A stretch of DNA of 64,000 nt from Shigella phage Sf19. The DNA is taken from sequence record MF327005; one strand, 5' to 3'. The position numbers and the translations under genes were made by a program. Below, in pieces: positions 4,146 through 59,175 of this stretch. Below the pieces are notes generated by a model. The model worked only from the letters and a program-made list of their open reading frames with translations. It was not told the origin of the DNA and made no database searches. Within the stretch, counting starts at the first letter, position 1. Every line of letters starts with the position of its first letter.

Positions 4146-6381
4146 TGGCACAATATACAGTTGATAGTTTTATTGTTGAACTTGGATTCAGTGAAAAGGT
4201 TGTTAAGGGTTTGCAAAGAGTTGAGAAAATGGCTATGCAGTCTGCTCAACGTATCGAACGCAATATCAATAAAGCCTTTGATGTGAAGCCTAATAGAAGT
4301 TCACAAGACGCTCTAAACAGACTTGTAAAAAACGCTCAGACTGCTTCAGGCAGAATCAATAAATCCCTAAACAATGCTATGAATTTAGATTCACAAGGTG
4401 TAAAATCACTTCGTAGATTAGAAACACAGGGTAAGAAAACAGCCAAAGAAATTAATAAGGCTCTAAGACAAGCTATGAATGTTGAAGGTAAAGTCAATGT
4501 TCGTGGTGGAGTTGGTAGAGGCCGTGGTAACACTATCCCTCCGGTTGGAGGTGGTGGTTCACCTAGAGTTAGACCTGATATTGCTCAAAGACAGATGGAA
4601 AGAATGTTTAATAACAACTTCTACTCTGGTTTGACTCGTCGTCTTGAAACAATTGGTGGACAAGGTAACCAAATGGCTACTTCCTTCAGAGGAAGCTTAC
4701 AAGGAATCTATAATAAGTACAAAGGTAGTGGTAAAGTTGGTGAGTATGAGATGGAAGTCAAGAAACTCATTGACACTACCAAACGTTGGGTTATTGCAGA
4801 AAATGCTAGACTTAAGGCAGTCAGAGAGTCAGCTTGGTTACAAGACAGAGCAAACTCTTCACTAAGACAGCTTGTAGGTGGTTTTGTTTCAGCGTATGCT
4901 ATGCTGGAATTAGCTCAGAAGACTATTGATGCAGGTGTAAAGAGACAGTCTGCACAGTTAGCCTCAACAGCTATCTTTGGAGGGGATACACAGCAAGCTA
5001 GAATGTTCGCTGCTACGTTCTCTCACCAGATTGGTCAGAACTACACAGACACTATGAAGCAGTACTCAAACTTCGCTGCTGGTGCTCAACCAGAGTTAGG
5101 TTTTAAAGGGACTCAAGAGTTCTATAAGAACGCTGCTATGTTCTCACGTATTCGTGGTGCTTCTGATGAAGACTTGAAAGGTATCATGATTGCTTTCCAG
5201 CAAATGGCATCTAAAGGTAAGATTCAGGCTGAAGAACTTCGTGGACAGTTAGGTGACCGTTTAGCAGGTGCTGTTCAGTTATTCTCTGATGCTATTGGTA
5301 AAACTCCACAAGAACTTGACAAGATGATGAAAGATGGTCAGCTTCTTGCAAAAGACGTTCTACCAAAAGTCTCAGAAAAAATGAGAGAGCTTGTTGAAGC
5401 AGCAGGTGGTATGAATGCAGTTTCTAAGCAGACAGCTACCTCTATGGGCCAAGCAAAGGCAATGTGGGATAACACCCTTGTAGCTTTGTTTAACAACTCT
5501 AGCGAAGGTATTTCACAACTCTCTAACTCAGTTGCAATGTTCTTGCAAGGTTCCCTTGGTACATCTGAAGCACTTGGTACAGGTATTGGTTACCTTTTAA
5601 AAGGTGCTAGTAACCTCCTAGACTTCGTGACAGATATCATGTACCGCATTTCTTCATTGTACTACACCTCAATGGGTTATTTCAAGGAATTAGATGCTAG
5701 TCAACAGAAACTAATCAAGGATTCTGCTGAGTTGGTTGCTACGTTCACCGCTATTGGTGTTTCAATTGCAGCTATTACAAAAGTCGCTAAAATCTTCGGT
5801 GGCACTGTAGCATTTGTCAAGAGTATCTTTGAAGAAGGTATCTTAGCTAAGATTGCACAGAAGTTTGGATTAACTACAGCAGCAGAAACAGCAGCTACAA
5901 CGGCTGGTGTATCAGCAACCAGAATGGCTCTTGGTGTAGGTGGTTCTGCATTAATGTTATCTGGTTCAGTTGACAAGAATGCTGGAAAGAGATTTAACGA
6001 GGTTAACACACCTAATCCTTTCAATGAAGCTATCTCAGGAATCACTAATCCAAAACGTCCAATGTTCTTTGACCAGAATGGACAACTTCAGTTTGCACAA
6101 TATACCACAGACACTTCTGGAAATATTCAGAGAGTTGATAATGGTTTGTCAAATTGGGATATTATCATGAACAATCTGTCTGAGTCTCTAAATAACTTTG
6201 CAAACAAGTTTAACCAGACACCTATGATGATGACTCCTTCTGGACTACCATTGCAAACTAAGCAGACGCTTAACGTTTCCTTTAATCTGGATGGTAAGCA
6301 GATTGCTACTAAGATGGTGGATATCACTGATAAGAGTCAGGAAGATATTCTGTTAAACTCTAGCTACCCAGAGGATGAATA

Positions 6382-19559: not shown

Positions 19560-19859
19560 TTAATCTGCCAGCCTTAAGTTAAAGTTTACACCAAGTTTTG
19601 TACAAGCATTAAGCATGTACTCTAAAGAAATCTTTTGAGGGTCGTTAATGATATTTGACACACGACTCTGTGAGATTTCACAAACAGTTGCTACTTGAGC
19701 CTGAGAAAGTTTTAGCTTCTCAATCTCTTTAGAGAATCTGAAAGATACAAAGTCTTTCATCTCTTCTATATCCATTGGACAGACATAACTCTCCATTTCA
19801 GCCTCTCTATCAGCCTCCCAAGAATCTTGAGGTGCATATGGGTCAAAGACTTCATTCAT
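19560..19859 (-). CDS. helix-turn-helix DNA-binding protein
   Basis: C-terminal XRE-like HTH (QAQVATVCEISQSRVSNIIND). Confidence 0.5.
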   Translation of the reverse strand: MNEVFDPYAPQDSWEADREAEMESYVCPMDIEEMKDFVSFRFSKEIEKLKLSQAQVATVCEISQSRVSNIINDPQKISLEYMLNACTKLGVNFNLRLAD

Positions 19860-20530: not shown

Positions 20531-20790
20531 GATTTTTTATAAGGCTACTGCCATCCTTCCGCACCCGACCTGACCTCGCCCAACCTTACCTGACTGAACC
20601 ACACCCGACCAAACATCACTTAAAAACCCTTTTCAAAGACTCTTAAGTGATGTAATCGAATTTTTATGTAGCTCCGATTAACTACCCATACCTAACCCCA
20701 CCTTGCCACACCGAACCAGACCAAACCCAGCCTCATTAAAAGACCCTTTTAAAGACCTTTTAAAAAGGAGCCTCCGAAGAGGCTACCTAG
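20531..20790. repeat. composite structured non-coding element, copy A
   Basis: No ORF >=60 aa; two C+A-rich tracts with 10-bp phased ACC units (20551-20610, 20683-20732), 11-bp-stem inverted repeat (20613-20653), hairpin (20653-20680), AT-rich quasi-palindrome; homologous to 21906-22190. Confidence 0.7.
20761..20787 (-). terminator. rho-independent terminator (minus-strand sense)
   Basis: On minus strand AGCCTC-TTCG-GAGGCT followed by CCTTTTT; directly after stop of 20796-21236. Confidence 0.55.
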
Positions 20791-21905: not shown

Positions 21906-22190
21906 AGATTTTTAACGTGGCTACTACCATCCACCCTTACCTCACTTTACCTAACCTGACCTTACCAGACCCAACCGGACACTACCCTACCTAGCGAAAC
22001 CTCATTAAAAGACCCTCTTTAAAGACCTTTTAAAAAGGTGAGTCTCATTTTAATGTAGCTGAGACTAACTACCCTCACCAAACCGGACCAGACCCAACCC
22101 AGCCATACCAGACCATACCACACCCAACCGAACCGAACCTTACCGAGCATCACTTAAAACCCTTTTCAAAGACTCTTAAGTGATGCTGGT
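21906..22190. repeat. composite structured non-coding element, copy B
   Basis: Same modules as copy A in different order: phased tracts 21932-22001 and 22070-22139, quasi-palindrome 22000-22038, hairpin 22041-22066, inverted repeat 22147-22186. Confidence 0.7.
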
Positions 22191-27400: not shown

Positions 27401-27659
27401 TTTTACTCCCTCTCAAATCATTCTGGGTAATACCCTACAGCAATTTTCTGCAAAAAGCAAGTTGACAAACTGCTTGACAAGGTGTTAGTCTTTTCGAAGT
27501 GGGTTTTATCTTAATAGACTCCCTTTATAGATTAACTATACAGTTTCTTTAAAAGTCTTAAAAGATTTTTAATAGCTTTTAAAAAGCTTTAAAGTTATAT
27601 GTATAACATACATAAAGATAAGAGATTAAAATCTTTATAGATACTTAACAGAGGCAATC

Positions 27660-52702: not shown

Positions 52703-52724
52703 GGCTGCTTCGGCAGCCTTTTTT
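52703..52724 (+). terminator. rho-independent terminator
   Basis: GGCTGC-TTCG-GCAGCC followed by TTTTTT. Confidence 0.65.
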
Positions 52725-52726
52725 AT

Positions 52727-52754
52727 TTGAAAAATGTGCAGGTTAGTGTATAAT
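52727..52754 (+). promoter_or_regulatory. sigma70-like promoter TTGAAA-16-TATAAT
   Basis: Perfect -10 TATAAT at 52749-52754 preceded by TG; spacer contains TGTGCAGG motif also found in 56902-57125 repeats. Confidence 0.5.
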
Positions 52755-54018: not shown

Positions 54019-54483
54019 ATGCAAAACATTATTACAGTAGCTATCGATGCTTCCGGTAACAAATCACAGGTAGTTCGTGAGATTATCAAAAGTAATTTCG
54101 ATGGTAAAATCTTTCGTGCAGTAAACGTGAAAGCTGATGGTAACATTCGTGAGTATCGTGCAATGTTGAATGTCACAAAACACGTTAAGGGTGTTGGTTC
54201 AACTACTGCTCATAAAGAAAATCTGATGACTATCTATGATATGGGTATGGCTTCAGAGTTAGGTGCAAAAGGGATTGTACAATCCGGTGCTCCTTACCGT
54301 TCTTTCAATCTGGAAACTGCTCTTATGCTTTCCTTTACAAGTGGTTCTCAGACTACCACTTACCTCTTCACAGATACTGCAACGGTTTCTGCGATTAAGG
54401 ACAATACCATTAAGGCTGGCGTAGCTGCTGCTTCAAAAGCCTCAACAATGGCAGCAAATGTCCTTGCGAAAGTTCTTGGTTAA
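54019..54483 (+). CDS. hypothetical protein
   Basis: 154-aa ORF. Confidence 0.45.
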   Translation: MQNIITVAIDASGNKSQVVREIIKSNFDGKIFRAVNVKADGNIREYRAMLNVTKHVKGVGSTTAHKENLMTIYDMGMASELGAKGIVQSGAPYRSFNLETALMLSFTSGSQTTTYLFTDTATVSAIKDNTIKAGVAAASKASTMAANVLAKVLG

Positions 54484-55883: not shown

Positions 55884-56076
55884 TTTCTGCACTAAGTGTT
55901 CTGTTGAGATGTTTGGAAAAGATACAGGAGACTTAAAAGGTCTCTTTACAAAAGCAGAGTTTGAAGCTGGTTCAGCAATGCCAGTAATCTGTGAAGGCTG
56001 TGGTGCTTTATGGGTAGACCATGAAGGTAACCGAGTTAAACCCTCTGAAGATAACGAACGTTGGGAGCATTACTAA
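55876..56076 (+). CDS. small zinc-ribbon protein
   Basis: 66 aa with CTKCS...CEGCG. Confidence 0.4.
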   Translation: MADFCTKCSVEMFGKDTGDLKGLFTKAEFEAGSAMPVICEGCGALWVDHEGNRVKPSEDNERWEHY

Positions 56077-56077
56077 T

Positions 56078-56872
56078 ATGGGTATCGTAAAAATTATTAA
56101 AGGTGATATCTTTAAAGACTTTGATGGTAAGAAGTTTGATATCATTGGTCACGGTTGTAACTGCATGAACTTGATGGGTTCAGGTATCGCAGCAACAATT
56201 GCTAAACGCTACCCAAAAGCTTATGAAACTGACGCTGAGGTTTATGCTACAGTAGGTGGTGAAAATCATAACCCTAAGCACCTAATGCTTGGTAACATCT
56301 CTGTAGCACGTTTTAAGCAGGGTCGGATTGCTAACCTTTATACTCAGGTTATCACTGGCAAAGATGCACGGTACAATGCTTTAGAAGCAGCTTTGCAGCG
56401 TCTGAATAATTACTGCAAAGTCAACCAACTTAAGAAAGTTGGGCTTCCTATGATTTGTGCAGGGATTGGTGGTCTTGATAGTATGGCTGTGCTGTCCATT
56501 ATTAATCAGACTATGAAAGATGTTGACGTATATATGTATGTCTATGAAGATAAGATGTACAGTCAGTTGACTAGTCCTGTTACTGGTTGGGAGAACTTCA
56601 GTGAGCCTCAATATTTTGATGGTGTTGCTGTGGTAGGCAAGGATAAAGTTACCCTCAAGGTGAAGCGTAATGGCAAGGTACACACCAGTTACCCTCCGGT
56701 TGAGAAGTACAATCGAAGTAACGCTCAAGTTACCCACCCGTTACAAGGTCACCACCACAGAGCGGTAACGTTTGGTGATGATGCAAGTGTGTATATCAAT
56801 GCGACTACAGAAGAGTTTGCAGAAGATTATATCACACATGAAAACGTAAACTATGTTGAAGCACGTAACTAA
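56078..56872 (+). CDS. macro-domain-like protein with C-terminal extension
   Basis: IIKGDIF...FDIIGHGCNCMNLMGSGIAATIAKRYP matches macro pattern (GDIT...NAAN...GGGVA.AI) loosely; start set at ATG 56078. Confidence 0.45.
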   Translation: MGIVKIIKGDIFKDFDGKKFDIIGHGCNCMNLMGSGIAATIAKRYPKAYETDAEVYATVGGENHNPKHLMLGNISVARFKQGRIANLYTQVITGKDARYNALEAALQRLNNYCKVNQLKKVGLPMICAGIGGLDSMAVLSIINQTMKDVDVYMYVYEDKMYSQLTSPVTGWENFSEPQYFDGVAVVGKDKVTLKVKRNGKVHTSYPPVEKYNRSNAQVTHPLQGHHHRAVTFGDDASVYINATTEEFAEDYITHENVNYVEARN

Positions 56873-56901
56873 TAAGTTACCCAGATAAACATAGACAAGC
56901 C

Positions 56902-57125
56902 CTCCAAAGTTTGAGTTTAAAATCTCAGGTAAGGGGGGCTTTTTCATTTTAAATTTGTGCAGGTATAGTTGCATAGAACTCTGGACAGATTTCTTTAGCT
57001 GAACTCCAAAGGGAAAATTCATTTCAAATTTGTGCAGGTTTAGACTCCAAAGAGCTTTTTCATTTTCAATCTGTGCAGATGCAGTTGGACTCCAAAGGGA
57101 AAATTCATTTTCAAATTGTGCAGGT
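56902..57125. repeat. four tandem direct repeats, iteron-like
   Basis: Units at ~56902-56964, 57004-57039, 57045-57080, 57090-57125, each CTCCAAAG...TTTCATTT(T)CAA(A)TTTGTGCAGGT; followed by C-rich tract 57142-57178. Confidence 0.7.
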
Positions 57126-57298
57126 AGGTAGCTGTAGGAAACCAGCCCCACCATCCCCTCTTACTCCCCTTCCTCCCAAAAGTCAAGAGAAAAATTTGTA
57201 GAGAACTCAAAAATAATTTTTGACTAGGTTTCTGTTTTAGTGTACCCGCATACGTGCGTTCTATTCACGAAACATCAAAAATATTTTAAAAATTTTTG

Positions 57299-57327
57299 TT
57301 GACTTCATAAATCCAGTCTTATAGTAT
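57299..57327 (+). promoter_or_regulatory. early promoter class I (TTGACT-17-TAGTAT)
   Basis: Followed by ..CATCAACGGGAAACATCCC hairpin and conserved leader AACAATCCTAAACTGGAGAATCTAAAAATG. Confidence 0.55.
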
Positions 57328-57376
57328 TTGCATCAACGGGAAACATCCCAACAATCCTAAACTGGAGAATCTAAAA

Positions 57377-57583
57377 ATGTTATATCAACGTGAGTTAATG
57401 ATTGTTGACAACAACAAAACAAATAAACGTCGTTTCTATATGCTAATTTGTGATGTTTGGCAACGTATCTCAGAAAAGGATTTTGATGAATATGTTGATA
57501 CGTCAATCAGGTCTGATTGTTATTTGACAACTCATACAAGACAGTTTACAAGGCATACAGCAATTTATTATTACAACGTTTAA
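57377..57583 (+). CDS. early small protein
   Basis: 68-aa ORF after class I promoter-leader, GGAG RBS. Confidence 0.5.
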   Translation: MLYQRELMIVDNNKTNKRRFYMLICDVWQRISEKDFDEYVDTSIRSDCYLTTHTRQFTRHTAIYYYNV

Positions 57584-57595
57584 AAAGGCTTGACA

Positions 57596-57757
57596 ATGAT
57601 TAAAGAAAACGATTTAATACAATACAAAGATTTAGACGGATACCCAAAAATTGGTAAAGTCTTCTATCTCTATAAGTCTGCTATGGGTAATGACTGTATA
57701 GCCCTTACAAATAGCGACAAAATAACCATGAAAGATTTTATAAAAATTATTGCATAA
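57596..57757 (+). CDS. small ORF (below track threshold)
   Basis: 53-aa ORF MIKENDLIQYKD...; no own promoter cassette. Confidence 0.3.
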   Translation: MIKENDLIQYKDLDGYPKIGKVFYLYKSAMGNDCIALTNSDKITMKDFIKIIA

Positions 57758-57762
57758 AGTGC

Positions 57763-57791
57763 TTTACATGGGGTTTAAAAGCTAGTATCTT
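57763..57791 (+). promoter_or_regulatory. early promoter class II (TTTACA-17-TATCTT)
   Basis: Part of conserved cassette AGTGCTTTACATGGGGTTT...AAGCCCCAGATAAAGAGCTTTACCAACAATCCTAAACTGGAGAATCTAAAATG. Confidence 0.55.
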
Positions 57792-57841
57792 AAGCCCCAG
57801 ATAAAGAGCTTTACCAACAATCCTAAACTGGAGAATCTAAA

Positions 57842-58222
57842 ATGAAATATCGTGCGCCTAAATTTATCAACAAAGAAAACTTTCGTAGTATCTTAGAGGA
57901 AACTATGAAAGAAAACTTCAAAGGAAAAATAATTGTTGTTCACGCTTACAATTTTAAGTATGATGTTAATGGTAACCGTATTAACCACTACAAAGCTACT
58001 ATGCTTGATGGTACATTATCCGGTGAAAAAGCTATCATAAATGCTATTGCAGGACGTGGTAAAACTGTGATACGATGCGAAAAAAGACGCTATCAAGGCG
58101 GTAAATATGGGTATGAAGATGCAATGTACCATCTTGATAAAATGGGGTATGATATAGAGAAAGCTGGAGTATCTCAAACTATTGGTAGTGATGGCTACGT
58201 TACAGTTTTCAAAATTAACTAA
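57842..58222 (+). CDS. early protein
   Basis: 126-aa ORF after class II cassette. Confidence 0.55.
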   Translation: MKYRAPKFINKENFRSILEETMKENFKGKIIVVHAYNFKYDVNGNRINHYKATMLDGTLSGEKAIINAIAGRGKTVIRCEKRRYQGGKYGYEDAMYHLDKMGYDIEKAGVSQTIGSDGYVTVFKIN

Positions 58223-58231
58223 ATAAAGTCC

Positions 58232-58260
58232 TTTACATGGGGTTTATAGTTAGATAAGAT
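58232..58260 (+). promoter_or_regulatory. early promoter class II (TTTACA-17-TAAGAT)
   Basis: Conserved cassette copy. Confidence 0.55.
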
Positions 58261-58313
58261 AAGCCCCAGATAAAGAGCTTTACCAAACAATAACCTAAAC
58301 TGGAGTATCAAAA

Positions 58314-58571
58314 ATGGCTACTATCAAAAACATCATTGTATCTGCAAAATCTCGTGATGACGCTCGCGCAACTGCTAAAAAATTAAATGGTAAAGTGGTT
58401 GACAACGGAAAAGAATCTGCTGTAAGATGGGGCGTGAAATGTGATAAGGAAATTACTTTAAAACGTAGTTCCTATGACCTTTTCAAAGGTGTAAAAGCAA
58501 TCGGTAGAACTAACGTCTACACGAAGAAAGGTTATAAAATGCACTTATCATTAACTGACAATTTAATCTGA
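58314..58571 (+). CDS. early small protein
   Basis: 85-aa ORF after class II cassette. Confidence 0.55.
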   Translation: MATIKNIIVSAKSRDDARATAKKLNGKVVDNGKESAVRWGVKCDKEITLKRSSYDLFKGVKAIGRTNVYTKKGYKMHLSLTDNLI

Positions 58572-58579
58572 TAAAGTGC

Positions 58580-58608
58580 TTTACATGGGGTTTATAGTTA
58601 GATAATAT
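58580..58608 (+). promoter_or_regulatory. early promoter class II (TTTACA-17-TAATAT)
   Basis: Conserved cassette copy. Confidence 0.55.
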
Positions 58609-58662
58609 AAGCCCCAGATAAAGAGCTTTACTAACCAATAGTCCTAAACTGGAGAATCTAAA

Positions 58663-59175
58663 ATGAATTTTGTTGAAGCTACCTTTGAAGTCCAAAAAGA
58701 AAAATTCACTATCATCTATGAAGCTGTTAATATTTGTGAAGCATCCCATTGTGTGGAGAATTGGAAGTTTACCGATGAGCACAAAGGCGGGGTTACAATC
58801 AAACTTAAAAATCCAGAGCGTAACGGGTACAAATATGCAACTCCACAGCATTACAGCCTTTCACAATTGATGAGTGATTATGCTAAACAAGGCCGCGAAA
58901 ATCCATCTATAGAGGCTTACAAGAGCTTACAAGATGAATTACAAAGAGATTTAGAAGCTAACAGCTATGTGCTATTTGCAAAGGTAGAAGATAAAGAAGG
59001 TAATACGGTATTAAATAGCTTTTCACTTGCTTATGGTTTCGATTGGTGTTATCTTGACGGGGAAGATTTAGATTCACGATTAGAAGAGGAAGTGTCGAAC
59101 TCCGATGGAGAATCTGAAGTAATGGAACGTTTAGAAGCCTTGAAAGATTCTGTTATGAATATCTTTAATATCTAA
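58663..59175 (+). CDS. early protein
   Basis: 170-aa acidic ORF after class II cassette. Confidence 0.55.
   Translation: MNFVEATFEVQKEKFTIIYEAVNICEASHCVENWKFTDEHKGGVTIKLKNPERNGYKYATPQHYSLSQLMSDYAKQGRENPSIEAYKSLQDELQRDLEANSYVLFAKVEDKEGNTVLNSFSLAYGFDWCYLDGEDLDSRLEEEVSNSDGESEVMERLEALKDSVMNIFNI

Follow-up and report, generated by a model that had tools for sequence, protein, structure and literature searches.

Four conserved direct repeats at the border of the early gene block in Felix O1-like phages: a putative protein-binding array

We analysed a stretch of 64,000 nucleotides (nt) from Shigella phage Sf19 (sequence record MF327005), referred to here as the window. A non-coding gap of 504 nt (56873–57376) contains an array of four direct repeats, which spans ~190 base pairs (bp) and is placed exactly at the border between a terminal block of early genes and the rest of the genome. 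The conserved unit of the array, W5-TCATTTY-N6-GTGCAG, is ~25 bases long and occurs in four copies, all in the same orientation, which end at 56964, 57039, 57080 and 57125. Judged by their sequence and its conservation, the repeats are almost certainly functional docking sites for a protein. We tentatively propose, as a possibility somewhat short of even, that they are duplex-DNA sites for a phage-encoded protein that would control transcription at this boundary.

The repeats were recovered by several searches. Tandem Repeats Finder reported 57003–57124 (period 45, 2.9 copies, score 131), and a repeat search returned one family of four members at 56922–56964, 56997–57039, 57038–57080 and 57083–57125, with a spacing of 75/41/45. 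The 22-mer TTCATTTTCAAATTGTGCAGGT, allowing up to three mismatches, matched four times against 0.00 expected. These results bear out a sequence-only reading of the window, which had reported four direct repeats at this place. The same reading had described tandem units of ~40–46 bp, which is true of copies 2–4, arranged head to tail as units of 41–45 nt, but not of copy 1, which shares just the 3′ ~26 nt. The ‘CTCCAAAG’ of copy 1, at 56903, belongs instead to the stem of a terminator hairpin (56897–56941). The array and the block between its first two copies are composed as follows:

56939–56964, plus strand: repeat copy 1, TTTTT-TCATTTTAAATTT-GTGCAG-GT.
56975–56990, no strand assigned: conserved block separating the first two copies, which reads AGAACTCTGGACAGAT here (consensus AGAAATCTGTACAGA), with a TGTNCAG-like half motif.
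57013–57039, plus strand: repeat copy 2, AAAATT-CATTTCAAATTT-GTGCAG-GT; absent in phages BPS17L1 and phiWec172.
57055–57080, plus strand: repeat copy 3, TTTTT-CATTTTCAATCT-GTGCAG-AT.
57099–57125, plus strand: repeat copy 4, GAAAATT-CATTTTCAAATT-GTGCAG-GT.

The pattern TYATTT-N7-GTGCAG has five exact matches in the window against 0.03 expected; four of them form the array and the fifth lies at 52723–52741. The motif was not found in the remaining 26 kilobases (kb) of the near-identical genome of Shigella phage Sf17 (~90 kb) that lie beyond the window. The distribution of the motif is thus not that of chance. The 8-mer TGTGCAGG alone is far less telling, with six matches against 2.5 expected, three of which are inside the array, and it is not significant outside it. 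Inverted repeats in the array region were only short and imperfect in the repeat search.

Nucleotides 56000–58500 of the window are 99.4% identical to Sf17; their identity to other records of Mooglevirus, and to those of Suspvirus and Felixounavirus, is lower. The window therefore represents a Mooglevirus, a Felix O1-like myovirus of the Ounavirinae. Felix O1-like phages are classical typing phages of Salmonella and common candidates for therapy and biocontrol. Roughly 255 phage records can be aligned across the gap, with ~70% identity, and we aligned 14 sequences from the three genera (Mooglevirus, Suspvirus and Felixounavirus; alignment A1). In 13 phages of these genera the motif cores do not vary, while the linkers are mosaic, with insertions or deletions of 2 and 4 nt. 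Core-to-core spacing is 73–77, 39–41 and 45 throughout the three genera, and two phages have three copies. The A/T tract of the motif reads T5 in some copies and A4–5 in others, in a pattern that varies between genera. Copy 4 contains GTGCAGGTAG, invariant across these three Escherichia coli-type genera, and the block between copies 1 and 2 has the invariant columns A116, G117, T121, C122, T123, A126, A128 and G129. The consensus of the sequence-only reading had included a 5′ half, CTCCAAAG(R)G, which other genera do not conserve; copy 4 of Felixounavirus and Suspvirus has a different sequence there, GGTCGGGCAAG in Felixounavirus.

The array extends to a fourth genus, which is the strongest result of the comparison. 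Erwinia phages of the genus Kolesnikvirus carry four copies, TTTTTCATTTTCAATTTGTGCATAG and variants, at the same genomic place with a spacing of 37/37/39. The repeats start ~20 nt past a terminator T-run and are followed by CGCCCACCCTCCCCTCTACC and then by an A/T-rich element and the promoter TTGACT-17-TATATT. The macro-domain protein encoded to the left of the gap is only 33.7% identical between Kolesnikvirus and the window, yet the array is retained. All four genera of Felix O1-like phages that we examined thus keep the array, which is the most conserved non-coding sequence found here, maintained between genera whose flanking proteins are two-thirds different. One difference is concerted: every Kolesnikvirus copy reads GTGCAT(A), whereas every copy of the other genera reads GTGCAG(G/A).

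Invariant asymmetric cores, variable linkers, a single orientation and the flip between A5 and T5 together argue that a protein recognises the sites as duplex DNA. A phage-encoded partner, probably conserved across the Ounavirinae, is favoured by the G/T difference, concerted within each genus, and by the absence of the motif from host genomes. No similar sequence was found in 5,426 E. coli genomes or in a plasmid collection, which excludes a host repeat or a plasmid iteron. Sites for the host factors IHF, Fis, CRP, DnaA, OmpR, sigma-E, sigma-54, Fur, ArgR and the marbox were compared by eye on the basis of their consensus sequences, and none fits all copies; a DnaA box fits the Erwinia variant only (7/8), and a sigma-E-like −35/−10 pair fits copy 2 only. 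Among more distant phages, Pakpunavirus, a relative that has the macro gene, shows no such gap. A scan of IMG/VR for two adjacent motifs returned only Ounavirinae, chance matches in coding repeats of tail-fibre genes and one unexplained 2 × 50-bp repeat. This last case comprises two 50-bp direct repeats, each with TCATTTTAACATAGTGCA, at 6254–6321 of IMGVR_UViG_3300018080_002802, non-coding and upstream of a gene, in an unrelated-looking metagenomic viral contig of 10 kb; it may be a chance match or a distant analogue.

A protein-coding gene on the minus strand was also considered. A 137-amino-acid open reading frame (ORF) on the minus strand of the window (56741–57154) runs across the array, a stop-free minus-strand stretch spans three to four cores in every phage examined, and a G-rich, Shine-Dalgarno-like sequence stands ahead of the ATG of the window ORF. 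Hypothetical proteins are annotated here in Mordin, KMM2, ESh22, mistaenkt, BPS17L1 and Ro111lw. Nevertheless, a minus-strand protein gene is highly improbable: the composition of the motif leaves two of its three minus-strand frames free of stops, and the cores fall in different frames both within one ORF (spacing 41) and across lineages (39/41 and 73/75/77). None of the three codon positions varies in the cores, ORF length ranges from 62 to 173 amino acids without a conserved start, and the ORF of the window shares 130 nt with the macro gene. The minus-strand ‘hypothetical proteins’ annotated over the repeats are, on this sequence evidence, probably artefacts of motif composition, a point of use to annotators.

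The fifth match connects the motif to a promoter:

52723–52741, plus strand: fifth motif copy, TTATTTGAAAAATGTGCAG, immediately behind the terminator of rIIB.

This site overlaps the −35 hexamer (TTGAAA, 52727–52732) and the spacer of TTGAAA-16-TATAAT, the −10 hexamer of which (TATAAT) is at 52749–52754. The sequence-only reading had already noted the core of the repeats within this promoter, at 52727–52754; the full motif at 52723–52741 is significant and conserved, while the 8-mer TGTGCAGG by itself does not carry the claim. In Felix O1 and mistaenkt, which together with the window represent three genera, TGTGCAG of the fifth site is invariant although the −35 hexamer differs, and Ro111lw has the same site at 75290. 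No promoter-overlapping fifth site was found in the Erwinia Kolesnikvirus.

Control of transcription at the border of the early block is suggested by the fifth site over a core promoter, together with the location of the array between a terminator and the first early promoter. In the mechanism that we envisage, the protein, once made, would occupy all four array sites, and the resulting nucleoprotein block would insulate or regulate transcription where the early block borders on the rest of the genome. The fifth site of Felixounavirus, Suspvirus and Mooglevirus would be bound by this protein as well, and the promoter after rIIB would thereby be repressed or retuned. As in operators, the sites are kept in relatives while the surrounding non-coding DNA diverges. 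The Felix O1 genome paper left the temporal control of transcription unexplained and found no RNA polymerase or known specificity factor encoded; its reverse transcription polymerase chain reaction (RT-PCR) data place ORFs 13, 16 and 20–22 at 5 min (PMC3185647).

The array shares features with known phage operators. Multi-site operators with asymmetric or direct-repeat sites include the P1 C1 operators, the P2 C and Cox boxes and the sites of 186 Apl. Like these, the sites described here are asymmetric, share one orientation, are clustered, include one over a core promoter and occur at very few loci. Unlike in the P1, P2 and 186 systems, where the sites lie on or flank the regulated promoters, the array is >170 bp from the nearest promoter. 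Direct-repeat binding arrays in phage control regions are a familiar kind of element, but neither this array, nor its conservation throughout the family, nor the tract that accompanies it (the C-rich sequence described below) appears to have been described. Our literature searches found no paper describing these repeats, and those given in the Felix O1 genome paper are confined to exact repeats of at least 24 bp at other places in the genome (PMC3185647).

Several observations weigh against transcription control by a phage protein. No binding protein emerged from the searches: Pfam and PHROGs were blank for the neighbouring and the cross-genus conserved small proteins, and Pfam, PHROGs and PDB sequence searches revealed no DNA-binding domain in the operon after the fifth site, the first early genes or the conserved small proteins. 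A weak match between the 154-amino-acid protein at 54019–54483 and the PDB entries Ika8/Ika4 was not interpretable as DNA-binding. The window encodes a single recognisable transcription regulator, a 99-amino-acid protein with an HTH_3 (Cro/CI-type helix-turn-helix) domain on the minus strand at 19560–19859, and it is without a detectable homolog in the Erwinia Kolesnikvirus genome. The overlap with a promoter that is typical of operators is seen at the fifth site only; the four array sites overlap neither a recognisable promoter nor a conserved promoter-like site, and they lie ~210–390 bp upstream of the expected early transcription start, which is far for a classical operator. A sigma-70 promoter inside the repeats was considered and rejected: copy 1 has TTTTCA-17-TATAGT in the window, but its −10 hexamer is not conserved. 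At least 12 other early promoters carry no site. Because the Kolesnikvirus array comes without a fifth site, the primary role of the array need not be promoter control. Finally, gene conversion among the copies, instead of a co-evolving binder, could be behind the concerted G/T difference. For experiments, the array offers a concrete handle in the form of a ~190-bp bait for the binding protein and four 6-bp cores to mutate.

To the left of the gap, the macro-domain gene (56021–56872; Pfam Macro) is the final gene of a long rightward unit that also includes rIIA, rIIB, polynucleotide kinase and the spanins (lysis genes). To the right, small genes run from 57377 to past 64000 and constitute a right-terminal early block of ~7 kb. 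Around the array, the gap contains the following elements:

56897–56943, plus strand: intrinsic terminator, an interrupted hairpin AGCCCTCC...GGGGGGCT with a T-run, ending the unit that finishes in the macro gene.
57146–57177, no strand assigned: C-rich, G-poor tract, CCCCACCATCCCCTCTTACTCCCCTTCCTCCC; a quadruplex motif (G3+N1-7 x4) on the minus strand.
57178–57203, no strand assigned: invariant 26-mer, AAAAGTCAAGAGAAAAATTTGTAGAG; invariant columns A319–A346 in alignment A1.
57273–57327, plus strand: A/T-rich upstream element and sigma-70 promoter TTGACT-17-TAGTAT (57299–57327), the first promoter of the early block.
57347–57376, plus strand: conserved leader and ribosome-binding element, CCAACAATCCTAAACTGGAGAATCTAAAA, 29–30 nt, preceding the first early gene (ATG at 57377).

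The T-run of the terminator doubles as the A/T tract of repeat copy 1, so that the array starts within the U-tract. The hairpin at 56897–56941 is the dominant fold in both the minimum-energy structure and the centroid computed by RNAfold. Homologous hairpins were scored as terminators by our scan in Felix O1 and the Erwinia phage, and they carry a terminator annotation in ASO1B and AYO145A; in the alignment, the sequence of the stem varies among genera and the pairing is kept. Between the end of the array and the first sigma-70 early promoter there are ~175 bp in the window and 200 bp in the Erwinia phage, and the ASO1B record has a promoter annotated at the position equivalent to TTGACT-17-TAGTAT. 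The tract at 57146–57177 is the only canonical G-quadruplex motif in the window and the rest of the Sf17 genome. Its core, CCCACC-N-TCCCCTCT-AC, is common to the window and the Erwinia phages, and AYO145A, phiWec172 and Ro111lw have a plus-strand G-rich sequence in its place. On the minus strand, the invariant 26-mer contains TTGACT (57186–57181), 17 nt from TAAGAG (57163–57158). By sequence, this pair could be a weak leftward promoter (57186–57158), although it fails the −10 rule of our scan. For the Erwinia phage, the scan found a strong leftward promoter, TTGACG-18-TATACT, which is closer to the early promoter by 60 bp, and more distant from the C-rich tract by >100 bp, than the window candidate.

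These leftward signals raise the question of an element that acts as RNA, either a non-coding RNA started leftward from a promoter that lies between the early promoter and the C-rich tract, G-rich at its 5′ end and bearing the four motifs, or rightward read-through with the C-rich tract, behind the intrinsic terminator, as a loading site for Rho, whose utilisation sites are classically C-rich and G-poor. The strong Erwinia promoter would suit the former, as would the invariant minus-strand TTGACT, whose partner at a distance of 17 nt is TAAGAG in the window and TAGCCT in AYO145A. Against this, the −10 hexamer of the window candidate lacks the conserved final T and fails the scan, neither strand is structured beyond shuffled controls (folding z = 0.17 and 0.23), and no relevant Rfam match was obtained at E ≤ 1. 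The A5/T5 swaps within the motif are not equivalent in RNA, the fifth site is upstream of the transcription start of its promoter, and the C-rich tract is not universal. Transcription does offer one point in favour: ‘ORF14’ of Felix O1, which by its number lies between ORF13 and ORF15 and is gone from the current annotation, was positive by RT-PCR, with a peak at 25 min (PMC3185647). On balance, we consider an RNA-level element quite unlikely.

A replication origin is the other function that the sequence-only reading had offered, next to an operator array. Protein-bound DNA sites, common to both, are well supported and the operator gains from the fifth site, whereas the origin gains little. 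It would work as follows: an initiator would bind the array as iterons, the A/T-rich stretch 57178–57320 would melt, and transcription from the adjacent promoter or promoters would prime synthesis, possibly through an R-loop across the C-rich tract. The four copies are indeed of the form that defines an iteron origin, at least three repeats of ~17–25 bp in one orientation. These same-orientation repeats of ~20–25 bp adjoin a stretch of 72.5% A+T and a strong promoter in one of the rare sizeable non-coding gaps. The genome has no second C-rich tract of this kind, leftward transcription through it would yield a G-rich RNA with a tendency to form R-loops, and the single extra site at a promoter resembles autoregulation by iteron initiators. 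T4 oriE reportedly combines iterons with small early proteins that lack known domains. Likewise, the iteron arrays of lambda ori, P1 oriR and F ori2 consist of three to five asymmetric, same-orientation, non-coding repeats of ~20 bp, adjoined by A/T-rich DNA and a promoter.

Other features do not fit. The replisome is T7-like, with a family A polymerase and a gp4-like primase-helicase (annotations of Sf17 and the Erwinia phage), and no initiator is annotated or was detected. Pfam and PHROGs found no initiator domain in 30 neighbouring or conserved proteins; unassigned proteins remain, so this does not prove absence. Copies are spaced 37–77 bp apart, in contrast to the contiguous 19–22-bp units of iteron arrays. 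No DnaA or IHF sites are present in the E. coli-type phages, where ACCTGCACA matches a DnaA box at 5/8 positions, and the Erwinia CTATGCACA is a near-match (7/8). The exchange of the C-rich tract for a G-rich one in AYO145A, phiWec172 and Ro111lw also speaks against an origin. Nor did the neighbouring DNA come out as the most meltable: 57178–57297 (72.5% A+T) is about the ninth most AT-rich stretch in the window and not among its 13 least stable 100-bp windows, so that the A/T-rich stretch by the array looks unremarkable on these measures. By far the least stable DNA is at 27548–27647. We therefore regard an origin at the array as unlikely, though of some weight.

The stretch 27524–27647 is both the most A/T-rich (82.5%) and the least stable DNA of the window. 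It lies where the DNA polymerase gene (minus strand) and the rightward replication genes diverge, and an 11-mer, TTAAAAGCTTT, occurs in it as three tandem copies (27558–27590). On composition, it is a better candidate for a replication origin than the array region.

The location of the array near one end of the genome recalls the injection stop signal of phage T5. By analogy, the array could be the cis-acting stop of a two-step delivery, an independently evolved counterpart of that of T5: the right end with the early block (~7–8 kb, 8–9% of the genome) would enter first, entry would pause at the array, where bound protein or the structure of the repeats holds the rest, and the remainder would follow after early proteins are made. 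We find this very unlikely. It accords with the position of the array, which delimits on the inner side a terminal block whose many small genes have strong promoters of the host type, and with the distance of the array start from the right end in two genera with records that show where the genome ends, 8.3% of genome length in Ro111lw and 9.3% in Erwinia PM21. T5 has its stop at 7.9%, among non-coding repeats that are conserved more strongly than the genes beside them (bioRxiv 10.1101/866236); both systems thus have a conserved non-coding repeat region 8–9% from one end that bounds early genes of the host-takeover type. In the RT-PCR of Felix O1, the peak of ORFs 16 and 20–22 at 5 min is in line with first-step transfer (PMC3185647), but the macro gene to the left of the array likewise peaks at 5 min. 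The argument is purely positional, and two-step transfer in Felix O1-like phages was not met in our literature searches, none of which was aimed at this question. The T5 region lies inside a 10-kb terminal repeat, measures 1.2–1.7 kb and has inverted repeats, palindromes and paired DnaA boxes (bioRxiv 10.1101/866236). The array, in contrast, measures ~190 bp, has direct repeats only, with neither paired DnaA boxes (cores 5/8 to a DnaA box) nor large inverted repeats, and lies outside the short terminal repeat of 438–613 bp, which is elsewhere.

That the gap itself is a physical genome end, with a terminal repeat or a packaging site, is extremely improbable. The terminal repeats of Felix O1-like phages are close to the gap in size (438–613 bp), and two ‘complete genomes’, EC106 (ON210138) and Andreotti (MN850610), start inside the gap, at positions equivalent to 57129–57361 of the window. 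Short direct terminal repeats of 581 bp (PMC8303462) and 613 bp (PMC6454146) have been described for this group. In the Ro111lw record the 613-bp repeat stands at either end, and 7,008 bp separate the end of the array from the right end; for Erwinia PM21 the repeat is exact and 438 bp long, again at both record ends, and the corresponding distance is 7,719 bp. In these two phages the terminal repeats are 6.4–7.7 kb to the right of the array, and in KMM2 (Mooglevirus) the homolog of the Ro111lw repeat begins ~1 kb beyond the window end. A terminus, terminal repeat or pac site at the array is thus refuted by real repeats for two genera, and for KMM2 by homology. Both record starts are assembly breaks, not ends; in EC106, ~190 bp are missing between the two ends of the record. 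The loss falls directly past the sole G-quadruplex motif of the genome, which suggests a sequencing or assembly dropout, possibly caused by the G-quadruplex or the AT-rich stretch. In the Sf17 record, beyond the part covered by the window, a non-coding stretch of ~1.6 kb after the last early gene (943–2545) holds the short terminal repeat and is packed with the short recurring words CTTGTTAG, GCTTATAAG and CTATATAG; the ends of Erwinia PM21 contain CTGTTAAGA and CTTCTAAG.

The small early genes to the right of the array are each preceded by a near-identical module, at 57754–57846, 58217–58316, 58573–58663 and at least eight more sites up to 63993. It consists of a promoter (TTTACA-17-TAAGAT/TAATAT), the 29-nt leader CCAACAATCCTAAACTGGAGAATCTAAAA, which runs up to the ATG, and a stem-loop, AAGCCCCAGATAAAGAGCTT, placed where the transcript is predicted to begin. 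The leader recurs before at least 10 early genes and is annotated as a repeat_region in Mordin. The 57-bp repeats listed in the Felix O1 genome paper are this promoter, stem-loop and leader module (PMC3185647). The modules, with TTTACA-17-TAAGAT, the stem-loop AAGCCCCAGATAAAGAGCTT and the 29-nt leader, resemble the PeSL cassettes of T4-type phages, and copy 1 and the fifth site of the motif described here both follow terminator hairpins. PeSL cassettes, which combine an early promoter with a stem-loop, are thought to shuffle small genes. The four repeats differ from such cassettes in having no −10 hexamer at a consistent distance and no sequence in common with the early-gene cassettes.

The C-rich tract next to the array is real (57146–57177), but the likeness to tracts at 20.5 and 22 kb that the sequence-only reading had seen does not hold, since those are of another kind, ACC-type with repeated hairpins. 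They belong to a separate repeat family at 20550–20790 and 21920–22190, in a region transcribed leftward, with ACC/CCA-rich tracts such as CCAAACCAGACCAGACCAAACCCAG. The tracts are joined to the hairpin-like unit CATCACTTAAAA(A)CCCTTTTCAAAGACTCTTAAGTGATG at ~20613 and ~22150, and to a second one, CATTAAAAGACCC(TC)TTTAAAGACCTTTTAAAAAGG, at ~20734 and ~22003. Across the whole window, decamers with at most one mismatch to CTCCAAAGRG occur 23 times against 7.6 expected, a count reached in none of 100 shuffles. Several of them read CTCCGAAGAG or CTCTAAAGAG and resemble the stems of small hairpins or terminators.

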